Virus record (IMG/VR): IMGVR_UViG_3300049988_000245
Coordinates: 1-64,000 of that record
Length of the DNA: 64,000 nt
Origin: a virus
Lineage: Duplodnaviria; Caudoviricetes
Direction: 5' to 3' (one strand)
Below the pieces are notes generated by a model. The model had not been told where the DNA came from, did no database searches, and saw only the letters and a list, made by a program, of their open reading frames with translations. Position 1 is the first letter of the stretch; every line of letters begins with the position of its first letter. The position numbers and the translations under genes are program-made. Below are positions 10,554 to 61,899 of the stretch, piece after piece.

Positions 10554-11984
10554 TCAGTACTTCGCATACGCCTTTTTGAATCCCTCGACGCTGGTCTGCA
10601 AGGGCTCCATCAGAGTAGGCTCAACGTAGGAAGAGGCCGCCATCCGCTTGGTCACCGCATCGATATAGCAGGAGAACTTTCCTTCCGGGCTCGTGGTGAG
10701 CGCGATCGGTGCCCCGAGCAGGCTGGGGATCGACGGGTGCTGATCGAGTAGCGCCGTGTCCACGGACACACTCGCATCTTTGAACGAACTCACCGCCATC
10801 TTGAGGAAAAACGCCACGTCCTGGCCCTCGTCGTGCCGTGTAAACTCCTTCCCGAATCCGACATTCTTGTAGCCAAGCAGTAGGATGGGAATCTTCTTGG
10901 ACAAGGCGGCGTTGATAAATTCCGCCGTGACCCAGAGCGGCTGAGCCCCAACCACGTGCTGAGCCATCACCTTGACCCGCTGCCAGCCCGGATTGACCGT
11001 CGCGTTGATCTCTTCGACCAGGGCGAGACCCTTGGCGGACGAGCAAGAGACGCCAATCGCCTTGACGTATGTCTGCACGGCCTGGAGCTTGGCCGGGTCC
11101 GCGAGCCAGCGGTCCGACAGGGTCGTGAAGTTCGCCACCATCTCGTGCCCTGCGATTTCCTTGAGAATTTCGACGAAATCCGGATGGTCGGTCGGCTCTC
11201 CGCCGCCGATGGCGATCTCGAACACCTTCATCTTGGCGAGAAGATTGATGGTAGACCGAAGCGTCTTCATGCTGGCGTGCTTGCCCGCTTCGGTAGACGA
11301 CTGGTAGCAGAACTTGCACCCGGCGGCGCAGTAGTCGGTGATCTTGAGATCGACTAACTCAGGCACCGACGACTTCAGATAGGGTTCGTCCTTTACGGAC
11401 ATTCGCACCTTGTTACCTGTACGCTTGTCGAAGATCGTAATATGGTTTCCCTCCTCACGGACGGAGTTGTTGTAGCTCGACTTCAGCGTCTCGAACAACT
11501 CCTCTTCTTCGCAGCCATGCATGACGAAGGGATAGTTCGCCGAGTCGTCCCGGCCGCCGACCACGACGATGCGGTTGGACTGGAACAGGTTGATCAGCGT
11601 ATGGACATAGGCAGGGTGAAGTGGATCAGCCGGATGACTGATCTGTGAATTTCCAGAGACGTAGAAGTTGCCGTAGCCGTAGTTGTACTGCTCGTCGTCG
11701 TCCGTCTCCGTGGAGGCCACGAGTTCGGCAATGTTAGACAAATGCGGCGTGAAAATCTCGACAAGCTTCTTCTGATCGCAACCCCCGCCGAGGAGCAGGG
11801 CTGCAAGGTAACGCATCTTATCCTCGGTCGAAACCAAACGAAACTCCGTTTCACCAAAGGCGGTCTCGGTCTCGTTGATCGGCTCGAATTTGCCGACCAT
11901 GTCCTCGGGGATCAGCACGACCGAGTGGGACGAACTCGAATTGGTTGCGAATCCCGCACGAAGGTTATGAATGAAGATCGGCAT
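10554..11984 (-). CDS. Radical SAM protein with N-terminal GFATNSSSSHS domain
   Basis: CxxxCxxC (CAAGCKFC), GGGEP, NFTT; start MPIFIH with SD AAGGAG. Confidence 0.85.
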   Translation of the reverse strand: MPIFIHNLRAGFATNSSSSHSVVLIPEDMVGKFEPINETETAFGETEFRLVSTEDKMRYLAALLLGGGCDQKKLVEIFTPHLSNIAELVASTETDDDEQYNYGYGNFYVSGNSQISHPADPLHPAYVHTLINLFQSNRIVVVGGRDDSANYPFVMHGCEEEELFETLKSSYNNSVREEGNHITIFDKRTGNKVRMSVKDEPYLKSSVPELVDLKITDYCAAGCKFCYQSSTEAGKHASMKTLRSTINLLAKMKVFEIAIGGGEPTDHPDFVEILKEIAGHEMVANFTTLSDRWLADPAKLQAVQTYVKAIGVSCSSAKGLALVEEINATVNPGWQRVKVMAQHVVGAQPLWVTAEFINAALSKKIPILLLGYKNVGFGKEFTRHDEGQDVAFFLKMAVSSFKDASVSVDTALLDQHPSIPSLLGAPIALTTSPEGKFSCYIDAVTKRMAASSYVEPTLMEPLQTSVEGFKKAYAKY

Positions 11985-12011
11985 ATGCACTCCTTGAAAT
12001 CCGTTACCCAT

Positions 12012-12043
12012 GCGATACGCTGAATCATCGAAATGGTCAAACC
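12012..12043 (-). promoter_or_regulatory. Sigma70-type promoter of the recurrent GGTTTGAC class
   Basis: TTGACC-N17-TATCGC; same GGTTTGAC -35 context at 31787-31780, 48810-48803 and 59797-59790 (all minus strand). Confidence 0.55.
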
Positions 12044-12120
12044 AAATTTCGACCAAGGTTAATTTTGACTCTTCGGGTCCTTCACCCGCATGATGGATGA
12101 ATATTCTGTAGGTGGTTTTG

Positions 12121-12777
12121 ATGACCGTAGAAGATGCCATTGAGGCTTTGGCCCATCATGTGAACCGGGGTCTATTTTCGATCCAGCACGAGGACTCGTG
12201 GGCGTTCAAGTTTGTCCAGAACGTCTCCGAGTATATCCGCAGGGACAAGCCTCTTTCGACCGAACAGGGACGAATTATCCTTCGAATCCTCGGAAAGCAC
12301 CGCGCCTATATGATCGAGCATGGCAGCGATGCCGATGCGATTGATAGCCTTCTCCTAAGGCCCCGGTACCGCAACGATCCCTATCCATCGGCGAACGTGC
12401 CGCGAGAGGTTCGCCATCTCGGCGACAACCTGCTGGGATTCCGGTTCAAGCGGAACGACGAGATTTCCCAGGCCCTCCAGGCGCTTGTCGCCTATCGGCC
12501 GTACAAGCTGGATAATCTGTGGTTCCACCGCGAGCATCGGCTCTGGGTGGTCCCGATCACCCGACACAACCTCGAAGGCGCCATGTCGGTGATCCGCGAT
12601 CACCGGTTTGGATTCGACGAAGGCGTGGCCGAGTACCTGACCGCATGCGAGAACAACAAGCGCCGCCCGGCAGAGTTTGCCTCCGACGACTCGATCGGCA
12701 TCATCGCGGGTCAGGTCTATGATTGCGAGATCGTCGCGTGGTGGTCTCGGACTGTCCTCGGAGGATCACTCGCATGA
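12121..12777 (+). CDS. Hypothetical protein resembling the N-terminal part of phage SNF2-type helicases
   Basis: FVQNVSEYI...PLSTEQ, FRFKRN..I, WFHREHRLWVVP (HARP-like pattern). Confidence 0.5.
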   Translation: MTVEDAIEALAHHVNRGLFSIQHEDSWAFKFVQNVSEYIRRDKPLSTEQGRIILRILGKHRAYMIEHGSDADAIDSLLLRPRYRNDPYPSANVPREVRHLGDNLLGFRFKRNDEISQALQALVAYRPYKLDNLWFHREHRLWVVPITRHNLEGAMSVIRDHRFGFDEGVAEYLTACENNKRRPAEFASDDSIGIIAGQVYDCEIVAWWSRTVLGGSLA

Positions 12778-30227: not shown

Positions 30228-30460
30228 ACCCACCTCATTTTAAATGCCGTTGCATCGTCTAAACGCTTAAAATACCAATCGTATCCAGACTTTGCGTCGA
30301 GAAACACATCGGTAATCAGACGATTACCGAGCAGGTCTTGCAGCCAATTCTCCATTTCGGGCTGCATACTGTTGTAACTGCGCTTCGCCTTCACGTGGAA
30401 GTCATAGCGGTTCATCCATTCGGTCGGGTCGATCGAGTCGTCCGCGTCTGGCTCCCTCAC
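30224..30460 (-). CDS. Family-F small paralog
   Basis: GTGA overlap with serS stop; ends WYFKRLDDATAFKMRWV. Confidence 0.7.
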   Translation of the reverse strand: MREPDADDSIDPTEWMNRYDFHVKAKRSYNSMQPEMENWLQDLLGNRLITDVFLDAKSGYDWYFKRLDDATAFKMRWV

Positions 30461-31749
30461 GTGGGCTCCTCCCGATTGATCTTCGTGACCCCACCCATGT
30501 AGGGGGCCAGGACGCTCGGCACGTTGATCGAGCCGTCCGTGTTCTGGTGGTTCTCCATGATCGCGATCAGCGTGCGACCGACCGCGAGGCCGGAGCCGTT
30601 CAGGGTATGCAAGAACTGTGTCTTGCCGTCCGGACCACGGTGGCGCGCGCCCATGCGGCGGGCCTGGAAGTCCCCGCACCACGAGATGGACGAGATTTCC
30701 CGGAACGTCGCCTGACCGGGCATCCACACCTCGACATCGTACGTGCGAGCGGCCGAGAACCCCATGTCCCCGGTGGACAACTTCATCACCCGGTGGGGAA
30801 GCTCCAACAGCTTCAGCAGGTCGGTAGCCGCGCCCAGCATCTCCATGTGCTCGAACGGCGCCCGCTCGTACGAGCAGATCGACACGAGTTCACACTTCAT
30901 GAACTGGTGCTGGCGCAGCATTCCGCGCACGTCACGCCCGGCCGATCCCGCCTCCGCGCGGAAGCACGGGGTGAGTGCGGTCAGCCGCATCGGCAGGCGG
31001 CTCTCCTCGACAATTTGATCGGCAACCAGATTGGTCAATGGGACTTCAGCCGTGGGGATGAGGAATTGCCCGGCTTCGAAGTCTGACGCGCTGCCAACTC
31101 CATAGAGATCATCTACGAACTTCGGTAGCTGACCGGTGTTGAACAGGGCGGATTCATTCACGATCAGTGGGACCGAGACCTCGCGGTAGCCCTTGCCCGT
31201 GTTGTGGTCGATCATGAACTGCCCGATGGCACGTTCCAGGCGCGCCAGAGCCCCGTACAGGACGGTGTAGCGTGATCCGGACAGCCGAGCCGCCGTCTCG
31301 AAGTCCATCAGCCCCAGGGACGGCCCTAGCTCGTAGTGAGGCCGCCCCAGGGTCCCGGAAGCACCCCAGGTGCTCACCACGACGTTCGCGGTCTCGTCCG
31401 GACCCACCGGCACGTCCCTGGCCGGGTAGTTGGGGACCTCTGCGAAGGTTTCGTGCGCCTTCAGGGCGATGTCCGCGTGCTGGTACTCCAGCGCGGTCAG
31501 CCGCTCCTTGATCGCCTGGACCTGGGTCTTCAGCAAGTCTGCGAGATTTCGATCCCCTGCCTTCATCGCCGCCCCGATTTGTCCGGACAGCGCGTTACGG
31601 GCAGACTGCTCCGCCTGAATCTGCGTGGCAAGCTGGCGACGAAGGTCATCGAGAACCAGCAAGGGGGAGGCACGGAAGGCCGATCCACGCGAGGCCATTT
31701 GGGCATCGAATTGGTCGGGATTCGCACGGACGTACTGAATGTCAATCAT
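30457..31749 (-). CDS. serS: Seryl-tRNA synthetase (alphaproteobacterial type)
   Basis: N-terminal coiled-coil arm; LIPTAEVPL, FRAEAGSAGRD.RGMLRQHQF, EISSIS, HTLNGSGLAVGR. Confidence 0.97.
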   Translation of the reverse strand: MIDIQYVRANPDQFDAQMASRGSAFRASPLLVLDDLRRQLATQIQAEQSARNALSGQIGAAMKAGDRNLADLLKTQVQAIKERLTALEYQHADIALKAHETFAEVPNYPARDVPVGPDETANVVVSTWGASGTLGRPHYELGPSLGLMDFETAARLSGSRYTVLYGALARLERAIGQFMIDHNTGKGYREVSVPLIVNESALFNTGQLPKFVDDLYGVGSASDFEAGQFLIPTAEVPLTNLVADQIVEESRLPMRLTALTPCFRAEAGSAGRDVRGMLRQHQFMKCELVSICSYERAPFEHMEMLGAATDLLKLLELPHRVMKLSTGDMGFSAARTYDVEVWMPGQATFREISSISWCGDFQARRMGARHRGPDGKTQFLHTLNGSGLAVGRTLIAIMENHQNTDGSINVPSVLAPYMGGVTKINREEPT

Positions 31750-49606: not shown

Positions 49607-49703
49607 GATAACATGCTATCAGGATCACATATATTTGACAATGTGACTGCTGATATATTCATTTTTTATACTATAAATACTTCGCAAATATTTGAGGTCA
49701 TTA

Positions 49704-52700
49704 ATGAGAATCACCGGAGGAATCAAGCCGTTCAGCCAGCAGAAGGTGCGGCTTGGGCAAACGTCGGGTGTTAAAATTGATTGGGACAACCCAACGGGAA
49801 CGCTTGGATCGGTCAACGCCGGAGATGCTTTCAACTTCAATTTTTCTGCCCGCTCATCCGACAACAACGTTGTCAGGTTCTACCTAAAGTCTGGCTCTCT
49901 GCCGGATGGTATGACGCTGTCTGAAAACGGGACGCTGTCGGGGACATCAAACTCTCCGGGCATGTATGCGTTCGTCATCAAGGCGGTTGCAGGTCTCTTC
50001 TCTGTCGAGCGAACCTTCTCAGTCCTCACGAAGGCTATCACGGTCGCTTGGACCTCTCCAGCCACGCTCGGTACGATTCCAGCTTCTATTTCCACCCTGA
50101 CGACCCTGTCCGCAACGGCATCGGATGGCGGCGCGGTCGATTACCAGTTGGTTTCAGGAAGCCCGCCCTCGGGAATGGAGTTTGTCACTTCTGGTGCGGT
50201 CCTTGGCAAGCCCAGCACGGGAGGCACGGCGGCTTTCACCGTTCGAGCCACTCGAAAGGCCAACATCTTCACCGACCGTACGTTCACGCTTGCGGTTGCG
50301 GCACCAATGATCACGTGGACCACGGGTTCGCTTCCGATGACCACCGGAGGAAACGTTTACGATCAAACCGTAGTCGCTACTTCCAACCAAACAAACGCGG
50401 TCCTATCGTACTCAGTCGTTTATGGATCGCTGCCCGCTGGACTTAGCCTTAACTCGGCAACAGGTCGAATCACGGGAGCAGCGTCGAACGTCGGTGGCTC
50501 CTCGGTATTCCGAATTCGTGCGAACGACGGGTATACGTATCTGGACAAAGAATTCACCATTACGGTGAATGAAGACATCATCTCTTGGAACACCCCGTCA
50601 GGCTCTTTTGCTTCGCTCAATGGCGGACAGACCTTCATGGGTACACTCGCGTCTGTTTCTAACATCACAGGCCGTTTGGTTAATCAGTATCGGGTCGTAT
50701 CCGGCGCACTCCCTGCGGGATTGACCCTCGACCCCGTTTCGGGATCGATCTCGGGAACTGCGCAGAACGTCAACGGCCTGTCATCGTTCATCGTTCGTGC
50801 ATCAGACGGGTTTGGATTCGCGGATCGCTCATTCCAGATCACAGTTCTGGCCGACGTCATTACGTGGCAGACTCCGACCCAGGTTACATTCAACGCTGGG
50901 GATGGCGACACGAGCATTCAGCTTAATGCGACTGCGCTTTCTGGAAGCCCAATCACGTATACGGTCGTCTCGGGCACGGTTCCAACTGGATTCTCGTTCA
51001 ATCCCACGACGGCGATTATCAGGGGATCGTCCAGCACGACAGTAACTTCGGCGATCACCATTCGGGCAAGTAATTCGATTACTTCGTCTGAGCGCACGTT
51101 TACGGTTTCCGTCAACGGGGCGCCGGTCTGGTCAACCGTCTCGGGCTCGATCGGTTCGGTTCTTCCGGGTCAGCAGATCAGCTTCTCGTTGATCGCATCC
51201 GATCCGGACGGCATTCAATCATACACGGTCATCCCAGAGGGGTCGCTTGCCGAAACCGTGTCGATTCGCAAGATGGGTAACACCGGCTACCTAACCGGCA
51301 CATTCCCAACTCCCTCGGATCAGTTCCCGCCCACATGGACGACGGATCGTGCCATTCCCACGGTCAACGAGGGCGTGATTCAGCCCATCTCGCTTGCTGC
51401 GGCGCCTAGCTCGGGACGTACGATCTCTCGTTACCTCACCGTGGGTGGCACGCTGCCCTGGGGTCTGGCGATGGCCGCAAATGGTGTCGTATCTGGCTCG
51501 GCTTTCAACCAGATTGACGAGCCCTTCACGCCACTTGCTCCCGCCCCGTTGTTTGCGACTGCGACCGACCTTGGCACGAAGTCCGAAGGCGATTCAGTTT
51601 CCCTAACGATGAATGCCACCTCGGTCGCCGGTAGTTCGATTTCGAACTACTCGTTCGTATCTGGAACCATGCCATGGGGAATCGTTCTGAACGGCTCTAC
51701 CGGTGTGCTATCGGGTACGATCGGCGACATCGAACCGGTCTCTGAAAATGTTGCAGCCGGTCCGGCACCCCGTTGGATGACATCCAATGCGGTCTCTCTG
51801 GCCGTCTTGAACGAGAACGATCCCGTCTCGGGCGTGAAGTTCGAGGCCCTGTCAAATTCCGCGTCGGGTATCCGTGGGTACGTGCTTCAGTCGGGTGCGC
51901 TCCCCTGGGGACTTACGTTGAGCGCAAACACCGGAGACGTCTCGGGTAACCTCGTGTTCGATCTCATGGACACGCCATTCGTATCTGCGCCCGGTCCGAC
52001 CTTCATCACGGCTTCCGACATGGGCACGGCCAGTGAAGGAACTCCGCTATCCGCAACGATCAAGGCGACACCCGTCACCGGTAATGCCGTGACCTCTTAC
52101 GCCCTAGTCGGCGGAATCCTCCCATGGGGTATCACGGTTAATTTGAACGGCGTGATCTCTGGAACGATCGATAACATCGAACCAATCTCGGACGCCCCTG
52201 CGAATCTTCTGCCTCCGACGTGGATGACCAACGCCTCGCTGCTCTACTCGGGTGACGAGAACTCCACGTTCACCATGAACGTCTCCGCGACCCCGTCGAG
52301 CAATCGTACGGTAGTGTCCTACAACATCGCCAATGGTGCGATTCCGTGGGGCGTAACGCTGAACAATCTTGGTACTCTCTCGGGCACGATCTCGAACATC
52401 GAACCGGTCCGTGATCCCGTTGTGATTCCGGAAGGCCCGATCTGGCAGACCTCGAATGCGACCGTGCTGTTCGCGGGCGACGAAATCATGTCGTTCAACG
52501 CTACCGTAGTCGCGAATTCCGCTACGAATACGGGCATCGCCGCATACACGATCACCAAGGGTGGAGCCCCGTGGGGCGTCTCTCTCAATTCGAAGACCGG
52601 CCAGTTCACCGGAAACGTTACGTTGATCGAGCAGGACGACCCGTTCGTGGTCACGAACACTCCGGTATTCGTAACCCCGGCGGGTAGCCTGGGTACGGTC

Positions 52701-53831
52701 GATGAAGGCACTGTCATGACGACGCCAATCATTGTTACGCCTGGACCACGCTCGGCCCCCGTGAGTGGTTATTCGGTTGTTGCTGGCGCGATCCCTTGGG
52801 GCCTCACTCTGAGCCAGACCGGTGTCCTTTCGGGAACGATCGATAACATCGAGCCGATCGTCGAAATGACCGCGAATCTTAATCCCCCGGTATGGCAGAC
52901 GAACGCCGCAACCCTCTACTCGGGCGATGAGCTTAGCTCATTCTCGACTACTGTGATGGCGAACGCCGCGACCAACAAGACCGTCGTTTCGTACACCGTC
53001 ATGAATGGGACGATTCCGTGGGGAACGACCCTGAACAGTGCGGGCGTCCTCACCGGAACCATCTGGGGAATCGAGCCAGTATCCGATCCAGTGGCGATTC
53101 CGGCTGCTCCAGTCTGGATCACCGCAAACACCTCGGTGCTCTTCTCGGGTGACGAGATCATGCCGTTCACCGCCACCGTGGTTGCGAACTCCGCCACGAA
53201 TACGGGGATCGCCGCCTACATGATTGCGAACGGCACCGTCCCCTGGGGCGTAACGCTGAACTCGAAGACCGGTCAGTTCACCGGCAACGTGACGCTGATC
53301 GAGCGCGATGACCCGTTCATCGTGACCACCCCGCCGGTATTCACCACCCCCGGCGATCTGGGGACGGTCAACGAAGGCGCTCTGATCTCTCAGAGCATCG
53401 TGGCGCTCCCAGGGGCGGCTTCCATCCCTGTGGCTACCTACGCGGTCTCTGGTGGAGCTATGCCGTGGGGAATCACCCTGAGCCCATCTGGTACGCTATC
53501 TGGAACGATCGATAACATCGAGCCAGTCAGCGAAGGAATCGTTCTTGGGACACCCCCATCGTTTACGACTCCGGCGGGCTCGCTCGGAACGTTCTCGAAC
53601 TCAGCAACCGTCAGCACCTCTGTGAGTGCGACTCTAGCAGGTTCATCCATCTCTTATGGAGTTCAATCGGGCACGCTTCCTTGGGGTGTTGTCCTAAATC
53701 AAACGAACGGTTCTATTTCTGGATCATTGAATCCTACTGATGATTCAAATCGTACATTTGCTTTCTCAATTAGAGCTTTTTCGTCAAATGCAGGTTATAT
53801 TGACCGTGCATTCTCTATTACTGTTCAGTAA
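49704..53831 (+). CDS. Giant Ig-like (He_PIG-type) repeat fibre protein, 17 repeats
   Basis: TATAAATA at 49672; SD GAGG; repeats P.W.T...LG...G.LP.G.TL...G.ISG. Confidence 0.85.
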   Translation: MRITGGIKPFSQQKVRLGQTSGVKIDWDNPTGTLGSVNAGDAFNFNFSARSSDNNVVRFYLKSGSLPDGMTLSENGTLSGTSNSPGMYAFVIKAVAGLFSVERTFSVLTKAITVAWTSPATLGTIPASISTLTTLSATASDGGAVDYQLVSGSPPSGMEFVTSGAVLGKPSTGGTAAFTVRATRKANIFTDRTFTLAVAAPMITWTTGSLPMTTGGNVYDQTVVATSNQTNAVLSYSVVYGSLPAGLSLNSATGRITGAASNVGGSSVFRIRANDGYTYLDKEFTITVNEDIISWNTPSGSFASLNGGQTFMGTLASVSNITGRLVNQYRVVSGALPAGLTLDPVSGSISGTAQNVNGLSSFIVRASDGFGFADRSFQITVLADVITWQTPTQVTFNAGDGDTSIQLNATALSGSPITYTVVSGTVPTGFSFNPTTAIIRGSSSTTVTSAITIRASNSITSSERTFTVSVNGAPVWSTVSGSIGSVLPGQQISFSLIASDPDGIQSYTVIPEGSLAETVSIRKMGNTGYLTGTFPTPSDQFPPTWTTDRAIPTVNEGVIQPISLAAAPSSGRTISRYLTVGGTLPWGLAMAANGVVSGSAFNQIDEPFTPLAPAPLFATATDLGTKSEGDSVSLTMNATSVAGSSISNYSFVSGTMPWGIVLNGSTGVLSGTIGDIEPVSENVAAGPAPRWMTSNAVSLAVLNENDPVSGVKFEALSNSASGIRGYVLQSGALPWGLTLSANTGDVSGNLVFDLMDTPFVSAPGPTFITASDMGTASEGTPLSATIKATPVTGNAVTSYALVGGILPWGITVNLNGVISGTIDNIEPISDAPANLLPPTWMTNASLLYSGDENSTFTMNVSATPSSNRTVVSYNIANGAIPWGVTLNNLGTLSGTISNIEPVRDPVVIPEGPIWQTSNATVLFAGDEIMSFNATVVANSATNTGIAAYTITKGGAPWGVSLNSKTGQFTGNVTLIEQDDPFVVTNTPVFVTPAGSLGTVDEGTVMTTPIIVTPGPRSAPVSGYSVVAGAIPWGLTLSQTGVLSGTIDNIEPIVEMTANLNPPVWQTNAATLYSGDELSSFSTTVMANAATNKTVVSYTVMNGTIPWGTTLNSAGVLTGTIWGIEPVSDPVAIPAAPVWITANTSVLFSGDEIMPFTATVVANSATNTGIAAYMIANGTVPWGVTLNSKTGQFTGNVTLIERDDPFIVTTPPVFTTPGDLGTVNEGALISQSIVALPGAASIPVATYAVSGGAMPWGITLSPSGTLSGTIDNIEPVSEGIVLGTPPSFTTPAGSLGTFSNSATVSTSVSATLAGSSISYGVQSGTLPWGVVLNQTNGSISGSLNPTDDSNRTFAFSIRAFSSNAGYIDRAFSITVQ
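51117..53543 (+). repeat. Eleven tandem strand-incomplete Ig repeats
   Basis: Repeats 6-16 (about 70-76 aa) lack the F.IRA...DR.F.I.V hairpin present in repeats 1-5 and 17 (about 90 aa). Confidence 0.75.
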
Positions 53832-58873: not shown

Positions 58874-58973
58874 TGGAAATGCCTCGAAAAATAGCTGAGT
58901 ACCGCTGGGGAAAGCGGAGTATTTATTCAACTACATTTCAAGGCGCAGCCGCAATATTTTCGCGACGTGAATT

Positions 58974-59342
58974 CTAGTTGGCTGGATCGTTGTAGTAATT
59001 CGATACGTACTGGAAGTCGTCCGCCGACATCCGAATCTTCCCGTCCTTCGCGCCGATCGCCAAGGCGAGCAGGACTTTCATCTCTCGGATGTGGTGACCG
59101 TGCCAGTAATAAGTCGCGTTCACACCTGCGAGTTCTCTGAGATTCTTGTCGGCCTTTTGGGTCGCTTGATCCGCCGTGAGGGTCACATCGAGCCCGAAGA
59201 ACTTGCGTGGCTTACTGTACTCAGCGATCCTCTCCTGACGCAACCGGACGCGCTCGGCCTCCCGCCACTCGATGGCGTCTTTCAGAGCCGCAACAACGCG
59301 CGGGGCGCTGACTTCGGCCGAGGTGAATGCCTTGTCGGTCAT
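58974..59342 (-). CDS. Hypothetical protein
   Basis: SD GGAG; TAG stop. Confidence 0.6.
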   Translation of the reverse strand: MTDKAFTSAEVSAPRVVAALKDAIEWREAERVRLRQERIAEYSKPRKFFGLDVTLTADQATQKADKNLRELAGVNATYYWHGHHIREMKVLLALAIGAKDGKIRMSADDFQYVSNYYNDPAN

Positions 59343-59575
59343 CTGTGCTCTCCATAGTCGTTGAATTCGATCCGGCGGGTCTTCCAGGGCTTCCACATGA
59401 GGAGATCGGCGCAGCAGAAGCCGACGCCCCCGGCGAGGTAGGAGTACCAGTTGATCCCGCCAGCCGCCCAGGGAAGCCACGAGATGGCAAAACCGATTGG
59501 CGCGGTCACCGAGGTTCCGATGAGGAATAGCGCGGTCTGCCGGTAAATCTCGTACTTGAGCGGCGTGTTCAACAT
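59339..59575 (-). CDS. Two-TM membrane protein
   Basis: Two hydrophobic segments; ATGA coupling. Confidence 0.6.
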   Translation of the reverse strand: MLNTPLKYEIYRQTALFLIGTSVTAPIGFAISWLPWAAGGINWYSYLAGGVGFCCADLLMWKPWKTRRIEFNDYGEHR

Positions 59576-59597
59576 GAAATACCCCGGATGAATAAAA

Positions 59598-59672
59598 TGG
59601 CGTCCCCTCAGGGATTCGAACCCTGGATCGCGGAGTTAGAAGCCGCTGCCTTAACCGCTTGGCTAAGGGGAC
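59598..59672 (-). tRNA. tRNA with CUA anticodon on a tRNA-Glu-like body
   Basis: GTCCCCT/AGGGGAC acceptor, G73, CCA, 4-nt variable loop; anticodon arm GCGGC-TTCTAAC-TCCGC. Confidence 0.8.
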
Positions 59673-59678
59673 ATACGG

Positions 59679-59752
59679 TGTCTCTGGTCGGGCTCGAACC
59701 GACGACCAATGGAGTTAGAAGCCACCGCTCTGACCAACTGAGCTACAGAGAC
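59679..59752 (-). tRNA. Second tRNA with CUA anticodon, A73, CCA not fully encoded
   Basis: GTCTCTG/CAGAGAC acceptor; GCTC/GAGC D-arm; GTGGC-TTCTAAC-TCCAT; GGTTCGAGCCC T-arm. Confidence 0.8.
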
Positions 59753-59881
59753 ATCCCGTACTTATGTGCTAAACGATCCGGTGATTTTCGTCAAACCAAT
59801 CTGATCTGGATGGTTAACGACCCACCTGAATCTCAAACGATTGCCGCTTAAATATTAGAGACATCCAACTGAGGTATTACC

Positions 59882-60004
59882 ATGGATTCACTGTTTAACG
59901 TCTTCATTGCCGACAAGCTGATCTTCTACCCGTTCGCCGCACTGGTGTTCTACTTCCTCTGCCTCGAAGCAGTCCACAAGACGAAGATCGTTCTACGTCG
60001 CTAA
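59882..60004 (+). CDS. 40-aa late single-TM peptide (not in ORF track)
   Basis: TTAAATA at 59848; SD GAGG; MDSLFNVFIADKLIFYPFAALVFYFLCLEAVHKTKIVLRR. Confidence 0.6.
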   Translation: MDSLFNVFIADKLIFYPFAALVFYFLCLEAVHKTKIVLRR

Positions 60005-60011
60005 AACGACA

Positions 60012-60042
60012 AGCCCGACCAAAGCAATGCTCTGGCCGGGCT
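60012..60042. terminator. Hairpin between convergent small genes
   Basis: AGCCCGACCAAAGC/GCTCTGGCCGGGCT. Confidence 0.65.
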
Positions 60043-60086
60043 ACACTCAGTACGACGTACAGTTCCGTCGAATTTGTATTGCAGTC

Positions 60087-60176
60087 TTAGTTGAAGGTGT
60101 CGATCTCAGCCGAATCGTAGCTGGTGACTTCCATACCAACGCAGACTTCCTGAACGATAGGGGCAGACCACTTCAT
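60087..60176 (-). CDS. pqqA: PQQ precursor peptide PqqA (29 aa; not in ORF track)
   Basis: MKWSAPIVQEVCVGMEVTSYDSAEIDTFN with ExxxY (EVTSY); SD AAGGAG. Confidence 0.95.
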   Translation of the reverse strand: MKWSAPIVQEVCVGMEVTSYDSAEIDTFN

Positions 60177-60214
60177 AGCGTTTCTCCTTAGTGACGTATG
60201 TTAACGTCTCGTAC

Positions 60215-60243
60215 ATAATAAGGTTGCGCGCAATTCTTTTCAA
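60215..60243 (-). promoter_or_regulatory. Near-consensus sigma70 promoter of pqqA
   Basis: TTGAAA-N17-TATTAT; spacer contains palindrome TTGCGCGCAA. Confidence 0.7.
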
Positions 60244-60397
60244 GCACAAAGATTCTTAGGAAATCATTATTTTCGCATTCCCATCAAATGATGAATTTTG
60301 CGACAAAATGCCATCTTTTGATGCACCCCAAATATCTGATTTTGGAGATAACGGGCGTCCGCATCGACCCTGCTGCACATGGTGTTGCAGGCGCCCG

Positions 60398-60428
60398 GAC
60401 CGCTCCCAGAGTCGTTTTGGGAGCGGTC
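60398..60428. terminator. Hairpin downstream of the 60466-61041 gene
   Basis: GACCGCTCCCAGA/TTTGGGAGCGGTC. Confidence 0.55.
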
Positions 60429-60465
60429 ACTAGGGGGTCAGCCAACCTAAGGCTGGACGCCTCCG

Positions 60466-61041
60466 TTACGCGGCGAGAGCCACATCCTTGACCTCCTTCG
60501 GTGTGATCCGAGCCGAACCGTCTGCGTTCAGTGTCAGCGTACAGTGGCGGAAACGGATCGCACCCTTGGTGGAGGGGTGATCGGGGGTCTCTCGGGTGGT
60601 CCCGGTGGTGGCCGAGAAGTCCACGTGATGGACGTAGTAGGATTTGCCCTTCGTCTTGAGCACCCAGGCGGGGAGCGAGGGGAACTCAATCGAGCCCTTG
60701 TTGAAGTGGAAGTCCACCATGGGGCAGTTTTCCACCGTCAGGGGGAAGCTTGCCATCTGATCGGCCATCTGCTGGTCCATCGCCAGGATACGCGCCCAGC
60801 GCTGCTTGGCCGAGTCGAGAAGCGTCATCGTCTTGAACGCCATGATGGATTGGAAATGAAGCTCGCGCTGGAGCTTGCGCGTGGCATCCGCACCGGGGTT
60901 GGTCCGGGCCATCCGCTTGAGCTTCGCCCGATCGGCGCGAATCTTCTTTGTCTGGTGCGCGTAGAGGGCGCGCCACGTCTGGCGCCAGGACTTGTACTGC
61001 TCGGGGGTGGTGAAGGTCGGGTGCATTGCGTGAGCGGACAT
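60466..61041 (-). CDS. Hypothetical protein
   Basis: SD AAGGA; N-terminal helices, C-terminal VDFHFNK...YYVHHV...TRETPD.P.TKGAIRF. Confidence 0.7.
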   Translation of the reverse strand: MSAHAMHPTFTTPEQYKSWRQTWRALYAHQTKKIRADRAKLKRMARTNPGADATRKLQRELHFQSIMAFKTMTLLDSAKQRWARILAMDQQMADQMASFPLTVENCPMVDFHFNKGSIEFPSLPAWVLKTKGKSYYVHHVDFSATTGTTRETPDHPSTKGAIRFRHCTLTLNADGSARITPKEVKDVALAA

Positions 61042-61051
61042 GGTCGATTCC

Positions 61052-61321
61052 TTACTGTGTGATCGTGGGGTTCTTGATTCCGGCCCACCGAATACGAAAA
61101 TGGAAGGCCGTGTTCTCATCGCTGAAGTAATACAACTCGTATCCATCAGCGTGGTACCAGTATCCGGGCTGATCGGTACACCATTCCCGGAGTTCTTTAC
61201 TGTAGTTGAAGTTCCTTTTTCCCAAATAGACTTTGTGGACTTTTCCCCACTTCTTTCGAATGTGGTTAAGGAGAAAATCTTTGTGCCGCATCTCTGGTGG
61301 TCGGTTCTCGTAATTCGTCAT
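61052..61321 (-). CDS. Family-F small paralog
   Basis: ELREWC...YYFSDENTAFHFRIRWA. Confidence 0.8.
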   Translation of the reverse strand: MTNYENRPPEMRHKDFLLNHIRKKWGKVHKVYLGKRNFNYSKELREWCTDQPGYWYHADGYELYYFSDENTAFHFRIRWAGIKNPTITQ

Positions 61322-61323
61322 GA

Positions 61324-61899
61324 TCACTTCCACCTCAGTGTGTACATGATCGCGTCATGCTGGTACTCGAACGCGATACCTACGGTGGTGGAACAGCCCG
61401 AGGCCCATCCCACACGCTTGTGCTGGCCCATGCAGGTGTCGGCCAACCAAACTTCGATTTCCTGAAGCTTCTTCACGTCGAAGCGGATGACCTTCATCAG
61501 GTACCAACTTGGGTCGATCTGGAGCGTCGCCTTCAGGGAGGCCATCTGCGCCTGATCCTCCCATTTCTCAGTGCCGACGAAGTTCGAATCCGTGTAGCCG
61601 TATTCGCCCGGCTCCCACTGATCCGCCTCGGGTAGCGCACAGATGCGCGTCAGGCCCTCGTGGAGCTTGGCGAGCAGTTCCGGGTCATTGGCGTTGCCTT
61701 CTTCCTCGAACGCCACGCCAGGGCTGTCGAAGGTCACCTGAAGGTAGGCGTCCTTCGTGAGGGAGAAGAACAGGGAGGAATTGTACTGACGGTCGATCGA
61801 ACACCCGATCTCGGTGTCCTCCGCGTCGAGTTCGGCGTCGTCTGGTAGGGCTGGAAGGCGGGCGAGCAGAGTCGCCCAATCTCTTTCGAGATCAGTCAT
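61324..61899 (-). CDS. Family-F domain with acidic N-terminal extension
   Basis: EIEVWL...IAFEYQHDAIMYTLRWK; SD GGAG. Confidence 0.75.
   Translation of the reverse strand: MTDLERDWATLLARLPALPDDAELDAEDTEIGCSIDRQYNSSLFFSLTKDAYLQVTFDSPGVAFEEEGNANDPELLAKLHEGLTRICALPEADQWEPGEYGYTDSNFVGTEKWEDQAQMASLKATLQIDPSWYLMKVIRFDVKKLQEIEVWLADTCMGQHKRVGWASGCSTTVGIAFEYQHDAIMYTLRWK

Follow-up and report, generated by a model that had tools for sequence, protein, structure and literature searches.

Phages carry auxiliary genes for short-lived or limiting components of their hosts, cyanophage psbA and phage pmoC among them. The closest described systems to the locus reported here are phage genes for PqqA, the peptide precursor of the cofactor PQQ. 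Coutinho et al. (2020, Microbiome 8:163) reported a virus-encoded PqqA in methylotroph phages of Lake Baikal, population VP_266, and that pqqA was proposed to be an auxiliary metabolic gene raising PQQ for methanol dehydrogenase (PMC7678222); a 2026 paper places viral pqqA among phosphorus-cycling auxiliary genes (PMC13188868). The pqqA gene described below was first noticed in a sequence-only reading, made by a model without database searches, which was not aware of any reported phage pqqA. That expectation of novelty was not borne out, viral pqqA having been published in 2020 (PMC7678222) and relisted in 2026 (PMC13188868).

We analysed a 64,000-nt stretch of DNA (the window, to which positions refer unless stated otherwise) that forms bases 1-64000 of a 265,895-bp IMG/VR virus record. 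CheckV rates the record 57% complete, and the genome should therefore be roughly 460 kb, placing the phage in the ~450-kb class of jumbo phages.

The pqqA gene and its neighbouring signals

The gene is a 29-codon minus-strand ORF (ATG at 60176-60174, TAA at 60089-60087), translating exactly as the sequence-only reading had written it. Candidate expression signals lie on both sides:

60087..60176, minus strand: pqqA, 29-residue PQQ precursor, above the cut-offs of TIGR02107 and PF08042
60177..60214, minus strand: 5' leader with a small hairpin (GACGU...ACGUC) and the ribosome-binding site, read from the sequence
60215..60243, minus strand: sigma-70-like promoter, TTGAAA-17 nt-TATTAT, 10/12 matches in a consensus scan
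60002..60042, minus strand: intrinsic terminator with a 14-bp G+C-rich stem, 3-nt loop and T-rich tail, from a terminator scan and RNA folding
60397..60429, minus strand: hairpin after the upstream 226-aa ORF (60466-61146), from RNA folding

Homology searches confirmed that the ORF is, as judged from its sequence, a genuine pqqA gene, far beyond chance. The peptide scores 35.1 bits against TIGR02107 (cut-off 20), the model by which the sequence-only reading had proposed to check its identity, and 34.9 bits against PF08042 (cut-off 21.1), with E = 1.9e-8 for the ORF in a six-frame model search of the whole 266-kb record. Reading the translation, we found both cross-link residues, E16 and Y20, intact (E-V-T-S-Y), in columns that are invariant in 173 host copies. 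The leader, K2-W3-S-A-P6, retains W-x2-P, which is the part of PqqA that PqqD recognises. The gene is a stand-alone small ORF (29 aa) of 50% G+C and GC3 0.69 with its own translation signal; as had been claimed, this is an AAGGAG ribosome-binding site (60189-60184), which stands 7 nt from the start codon.

The promoter described by the sequence-only reading, TTGAAA-N17-TATTAT, was found at 60243-60215, where it is the top promoter-like match in the 1.9 kb scanned (59400-61300); the evidence for it is modest, because the scan returned 3 sites against 1.1 +/- 1.1 in shuffles. Its spacer contains GAATTGCGCGCAA, which is similar to GAATTGCGCCCAA, part of the control region that precedes orphan pqqA arrays in hosts. 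The likeness is limited to 13-nt blocks, with a score that 0.1-3% of mononucleotide shuffles reach in most host pairs before any correction for multiple tests, and homology between the phage promoter region and the host array control region is suggestive only. Within the leader, RNA folding gives the hairpin little stability (-6.2 kcal/mol, z = -1.5), and the final ~12-21 nt, ribosome-binding site included, are homologous to host pqqA leaders. The downstream terminator is present too, though its hairpin occupies 60042-60012, beyond the stretch that the reading had delimited; its centroid fold has an energy of -33 kcal/mol (z = -4.3), a stability that none of 200 shuffles matches. The hairpin at 60397-60429 has an 11-bp stem (-25 kcal/mol, z = -3.1) and no clear T-run, and may be a terminator bounding the pqqA unit upstream. 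With its own promoter-like site, a strong terminator and this hairpin behind the upstream 226-aa ORF, pqqA looks like a self-contained promoter-to-terminator transcription unit.

An Rfam search of 58-62 kb returned two tRNAs and nothing else:

59598-59672, minus strand: first of two tandem tRNA genes, Rfam 57.7 bits
59677-59752, minus strand: second tandem tRNA gene, Rfam 64 bits

This pair lies ~260 nt downstream of the pqqA terminator, and ARAGORN gives both tRNAs a CUA (amber-reading) anticodon. They are ~78% identical to Methylobacterium tRNA-Arg(UCU), with an anticodon loop shifted by one base (CUUCUAA in the host, UUCUAAC in the phage) and closed by a C-U mismatch; the record also has three tRNA-Glu, one tRNA-Asp and one tRNA-Cys. 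Stop-codon recoding, suspected from the two tRNA-CUA genes, was rejected: code 11 gives a coding density of 0.81, compared with 0.845 when TAG is read through and 0.84 when TAA is. TAG ends 39 of 270 long ORFs, with no sign of genome-wide TAG recoding.

Integrity of the locus and its viral context

Host-chimeric misassembly was the danger to which the sequence-only reading had pointed, and host-type pqqA contigs are indeed very abundant in the same samples, with an assembly break inside pqqA in one run. We nevertheless regard chimerism or contamination, in which the pqqA segment would come from co-assembled Methylobacterium DNA, as extremely improbable. When 59000-61500 was compared with the retrieved bacterial loci by blastn, bacterial homology was confined to 60081-60197 (the ORF and its ribosome-binding site; ~110 bp), and the flanks are unlike bacterial DNA. 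An independent 452-nt leaf-metagenome contig from a different study covers 59915-60366 with 0 mismatches and bridges both junctions; because it spans the gene and both phage flanks without mismatch, the locus is not an assembly chimera. The composition of pqqA is also unlike that of host copies, and phage genes reach 60 kb in one direction from it and 200 kb in the other.

A silage strain whose flanks have diverged by ~4% still has a nearly unchanged 5' part of pqqA. Its contig skips window positions 58972-59290 and 59369-59581 (317 and 211 nt), with the tRNA pair kept; the skipped stretches are strain-level indels downstream of pqqA.

PHROG matches support the earlier view that the contig, an IMG/VR virus record, is viral on both sides of the gene. 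One side carries a virion structural protein, a UvsX-like recombinase, helicases, a primase and DnaB; the other, beyond 64 kb, carries NrdA, tail and tail-fibre proteins, topoisomerase II, RIIA and virion proteins. A further large gene stands out in the window:

49692-53831, plus strand: 1379-aa protein with 13 He_PIG Ig-like domain matches

It is followed by two ORFs (353 and 387 aa) without a family match, and the region of the 1379-aa protein is probably a fibre or adhesin module.

The virion protein has its best cultured relative in Sinorhizobium phage Phosso (469 kb; 30% identity), followed by Rak2-like jumbo phages. Phosso, the nearest isolate, gave no match to the PqqA model, nor did tblastn of the PqqA peptide against 50,697 cultured phage records. 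Searching for relatives through the upstream 226-aa ORF or the SerRS-like protein returned none, or only the contig of L123, the second viral copy discussed below; the phage clade is thinly sampled, and a literature search found no paper on Methylobacterium jumbo phages.

HMM searches of the 266-kb record found no PqqB, PqqC, PqqD, PqqE or PQQ-dependent alcohol dehydrogenase, and tblastn of verified Methylobacterium PqqB, PqqCD and PqqE against it found none of these; the earlier remark that the window lacks any further pqq gene is correct and applies equally to the entire record. The canonical operon context of adjacent pqqB-E is absent from the phage locus, which is not disqualifying because 70 of 157 classifiable host copies are also orphans.

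Origin of the gene, its host and other viral copies

Using a back-translated degenerate DNA pattern for long-tailed PqqA, we searched 185,579 species genomes and found at least 120 bacterial loci of this subtype. Among the matches listed, nearly all are Methylobacterium or Methylorubrum, and the few others are Salinarimonas, Microvirga, Methylocystis and Beijerinckiaceae. One orphan M. thuringiense copy, among 174 bacterial copies retrieved, encodes a 29/29 identical peptide, and in the same set an M. adhaesivum copy matches phage pqqA at 86/90 nt; overall, the phage gene is 92-96% identical to host genes at the nucleotide level. The peptide that the sequence-only reading had given as a putative M. 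extorquens PqqA proved to be a real sequence, present in 23 fetched bacterial copies (for example the M. fujisawaense operon copy, L133) and 25/29 identical to the phage peptide.

Host copies form two classes, those linked to pqqB, mostly S9/A9, and orphans, often in tandem arrays of 2-4 and mostly Q9. The phage peptide is of the Q9 type, which among host copies counts 46 orphan and 6 pqqB-linked members, and the pqqB-linked copies reach at most 25/29 identity with it. Judged from these sequence classes, phage pqqA appears to derive from the orphan (non-operon) class of the host. The orphan arrays of M. thuringiense, M. adhaesivum, M. oxalidis and M. segetis have the same subtype (Q9, V11) and ribosome-binding-site context as the phage gene, and likewise no adjacent pqqB. 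They differ in standing as arrays of 2-4 copies downstream of a conserved control region, TATGAGAAATATAAGTGTAG...CTTGAATTGCGCCCAA...CCTATGTT, whereas the phage gene is present once, with no more than an apparent 13-nt remnant of the control region, hexamers nearer the sigma-70 consensus and a lower GC3. Operon-linked pqqA (pqqA-pqqB-pqqC/D-pqqE in Methylobacterium/Methylorubrum) shares the family, the E-x3-Y core and the C-terminal tail with the phage copy, at 25/29; these host copies are mostly S9/A9, with pqqB within ~130 nt downstream, in contrast to the Q9 phage copy without pqqB.

Mean GC3 is 0.87 in host copies and 0.84 in those of the Q9 type, only 5% of which are as low as the phage's 0.69; the lower value may reflect a shift of pqqA towards phage composition. 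Genomes hold several copies (4 in M. thuringiense, 3 in M. adhaesivum and 5 in M. segetis), and pqqA dosage seems to matter in hosts, with 3-5 copies per genome, often in tandem arrays. Before the first copy of the orphan arrays in group-A Methylobacterium we observed a strongly conserved ~60-nt element (TATGAGAAATATAAGTGTAG...CTTGWATTGCGCCCAA...CCTATSTT; L242 3600-3690, L205 3490-3560, L144, L149, L178 and L124) that looks like a promoter plus regulator site, and later copies in the arrays have a hairpin and ribosome-binding site only.

The phage stretch occurs in leaf metagenomes of three studies (0.90-1.00 word share) and partially in silage metagenomes. In all four metagenome runs compared, host-type pqqA contigs stack up on the phage gene, and Methylobacterium-like bacteria therefore co-occur with the phage. 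ARAGORN identified a permuted (two-piece) tmRNA at 91133-91526 of the record, minus strand and outside the window, with the tag VNDNVAMEVRLAA; permuted tmRNA is the alphaproteobacterial form. Gene similarity, habitat and tmRNA type together make a leaf-dwelling Methylobacterium the most likely host. Genomes of Methylobacterium contain pqqB, pqqCD and pqqE.

The subtype pattern matched only one other viral contig in IMG/VR with a Methylobacterium-type pqqA, L123 (18 kb, CheckV 4% complete, 62% G+C). Its relationship to the window phage by tblastx includes the region of one annotated gene:

30457-31749, minus strand: seryl-tRNA synthetase with Seryl_tRNA_N and class II core domains

L123 is collinear with 30.9-35.3 kb of the window, this gene included, and also matches 57.4-57.8 kb; the phage synthetase is 45% identical to its L123 counterpart. 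The pqqA of L123 sits between homologues of window positions ~31.7 and ~32.2 kb, ~28 kb off the position in the window. Over 105 nt, the window copy shares 97 positions with its best host matches (M. oxalidis and M. adhaesivum) and the L123 copy 102 with its own (M. dankookense), compared with 93 between the two phage copies. Because each phage copy lies nearer to host copies than the two lie to one another, independent capture is favoured, and the simplest reading of these sequences is that the two phages acquired pqqA separately; relocation combined with exchange with host genes could instead have produced the same pattern.

A general PqqA-core pattern scan of IMG/VR yielded at least 120 viral contigs (L003-L122 listed). 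All matches listed hold a true pqqA mini-ORF of 23-25 aa, mostly of one subtype that is unlike the window's, on contigs with a median G+C of 37%. No pqqB, pqqCD or pqqE was found in the ~1 Mb of these listed contigs, whose commonest protein clusters are a phage exonuclease, a Sak-like annealing protein, an endolysin and a DNA polymerase subunit, with a major head protein, a primase-helicase and a terminase also common. The suspicion voiced in the sequence-only reading that short-ORF filters hide phage pqqA is thus well founded, at least 120 viral contigs having lone pqqA mini-ORFs. Surveys of viral metabolic genes undercount, since routine phage annotation misses genes of 23-29 codons.

Proposed function and comparison with known systems

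Leaves emit much methanol, and Methylobacterium, the main consumer there, has methanol dehydrogenases that need PQQ. We consider it probable that a jumbo phage of leaf Methylobacterium captured a bona fide orphan-class pqqA and kept it as its own unit to sustain PQQ supply. During infection, host RNA polymerase would transcribe the phage gene, host PqqD (fused to PqqC in Methylobacterium) would bind the peptide, PqqE would cross-link it at E16-Y20, and PqqB and PqqC would carry out trimming and completion. The host enzymes should accept the phage peptide because its motif and leader are intact and it is identical to a native host peptide. One peptide would give one PQQ, and since the peptide alone is consumed in the pathway, a phage copy could keep up or raise PQQ synthesis once host pqqA transcripts fade. 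The PQQ would then feed periplasmic methanol/alcohol dehydrogenases and so provide the energy needed to make a very large burst of virions. Methanol dehydrogenase binds PQQ tightly as a prosthetic group and does not use it up, and a benefit is therefore expected only if PQQ or the holo-enzyme is limiting or lost during infection. In a methylotroph production strain with five pqqA copies, pqqA transcripts rise 3.5-4.3-fold at the peak of PQQ synthesis (PMC9851590). None of the sequencing runs that contain the phage stretch is an RNA run.

Signs of selection on the phage gene are L123's own copy, the 5' part retained by the silage strain and the lone pqqA of at least 120 other viral contigs; as a counterpoint, 92-96% identity to host genes also fits a recent, still neutral capture. 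Every phage codon is found in some host copy, with 3 synonymous and 1 non-synonymous codon differences from the nearest; given this absence of phage-specific codons, a dN/dS-type test is uninformative and purifying selection on the phage branch is not demonstrable. These features would suit a passenger without benefit, a ~110-bp piece of a multi-copy host gene recently acquired by illegitimate or short-homology recombination, as would the lack of pqqA in Phosso, the closest cultured relative, and the tolerance of jumbo phages for cargo. We think this rather unlikely, given the gene's own promoter-like site and strong terminator between flanks that are not host-like, a GC3 within the lowest 5% of Q9-type host copies, the second, apparently independent capture in a related phage, retention in the diverged silage strain and recurrence of lone pqqA in unrelated viral contigs.

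The peptide could also serve some other purpose, such as titration of PqqD/PqqE, a signal, a substrate for a phage radical-SAM enzyme or a homology patch for recombination at host pqqA loci. Two observations lend themselves to such roles: recombination could proceed through the ~110 bp that match several host loci at 92-96% identity, and the phage encodes a radical-SAM protein of unassigned role:

10554-12140, minus strand: 528-aa radical-SAM protein, with the domain in residues ~255-513 and a 250-aa N-terminal half without a family

The best named neighbours of this protein, the sole radical-SAM protein of the record, fall far below their cut-offs, and it was rejected as a phage PqqE, matching only the generic Radical_SAM family and scoring 17-19 bits on the PqqE model (cut-off 381). 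It is encoded 48 kb away from pqqA, no PqqD-like domain was found in the record, and the peptide, being the native host precursor, should simply be processed; nothing else indicates a role outside PQQ synthesis, and we judge these other purposes distinctly improbable.

Returning to a role in sustaining PQQ supply, the presence of a PQQ precursor gene in a phage suggests that cofactor supply limits phage production in Methylobacterium. It is quite possible, though we propose it tentatively, that unrelated phages of distant methylotrophs (Methylophilaceae-type in water, Methylobacterium on leaves) have repeatedly captured a lone pqqA, with two apparently separate captures in the related jumbo phages here. 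If true, precursor supply would be a general bottleneck in infected methylotrophs, and phages would tune cofactor production, and hence methanol turnover, in the phyllosphere. The locus in any case extends a little-known class of auxiliary genes from phages of aquatic Betaproteobacteria to those of leaf-surface Alphaproteobacteria.

Like the window phage, Baikal population VP_266 is associated with methanol-oxidising bacteria and carries the precursor-peptide gene alone (PMC7678222). Its predicted host belongs to the Methylophilaceae (Betaproteobacteria), it carries a methanol dehydrogenase gene, and a related Baikal population beside it has about 35% G+C (PMC7678222). The window phage, unlike VP_266, has a probable Methylobacterium-type host (Alphaproteobacteria) on the leaf surface, no dehydrogenase gene, the 29-aa long-tailed peptide subtype and a ~450-kb-class jumbo genome. 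The listed 23-25-aa viral pqqA genes resemble it in being hidden mini-ORFs without pqqB-E beside phage replication, lysis and head genes, and differ in lacking the long tail, in subtype and in belonging to phage lineages unrelated to it. With cyanophage psbA and phage pmoC, the locus has in common that the phage provides the one part of the host's energy-yielding pathway that is consumed or subject to turnover; those genes encode enzyme or reaction-centre subunits, whereas phage pqqA encodes a stoichiometrically consumed 29-residue cofactor precursor. The window gene is a well-supported new example of the already known viral pqqA, its host group, long peptide subtype and phage class being what is new.
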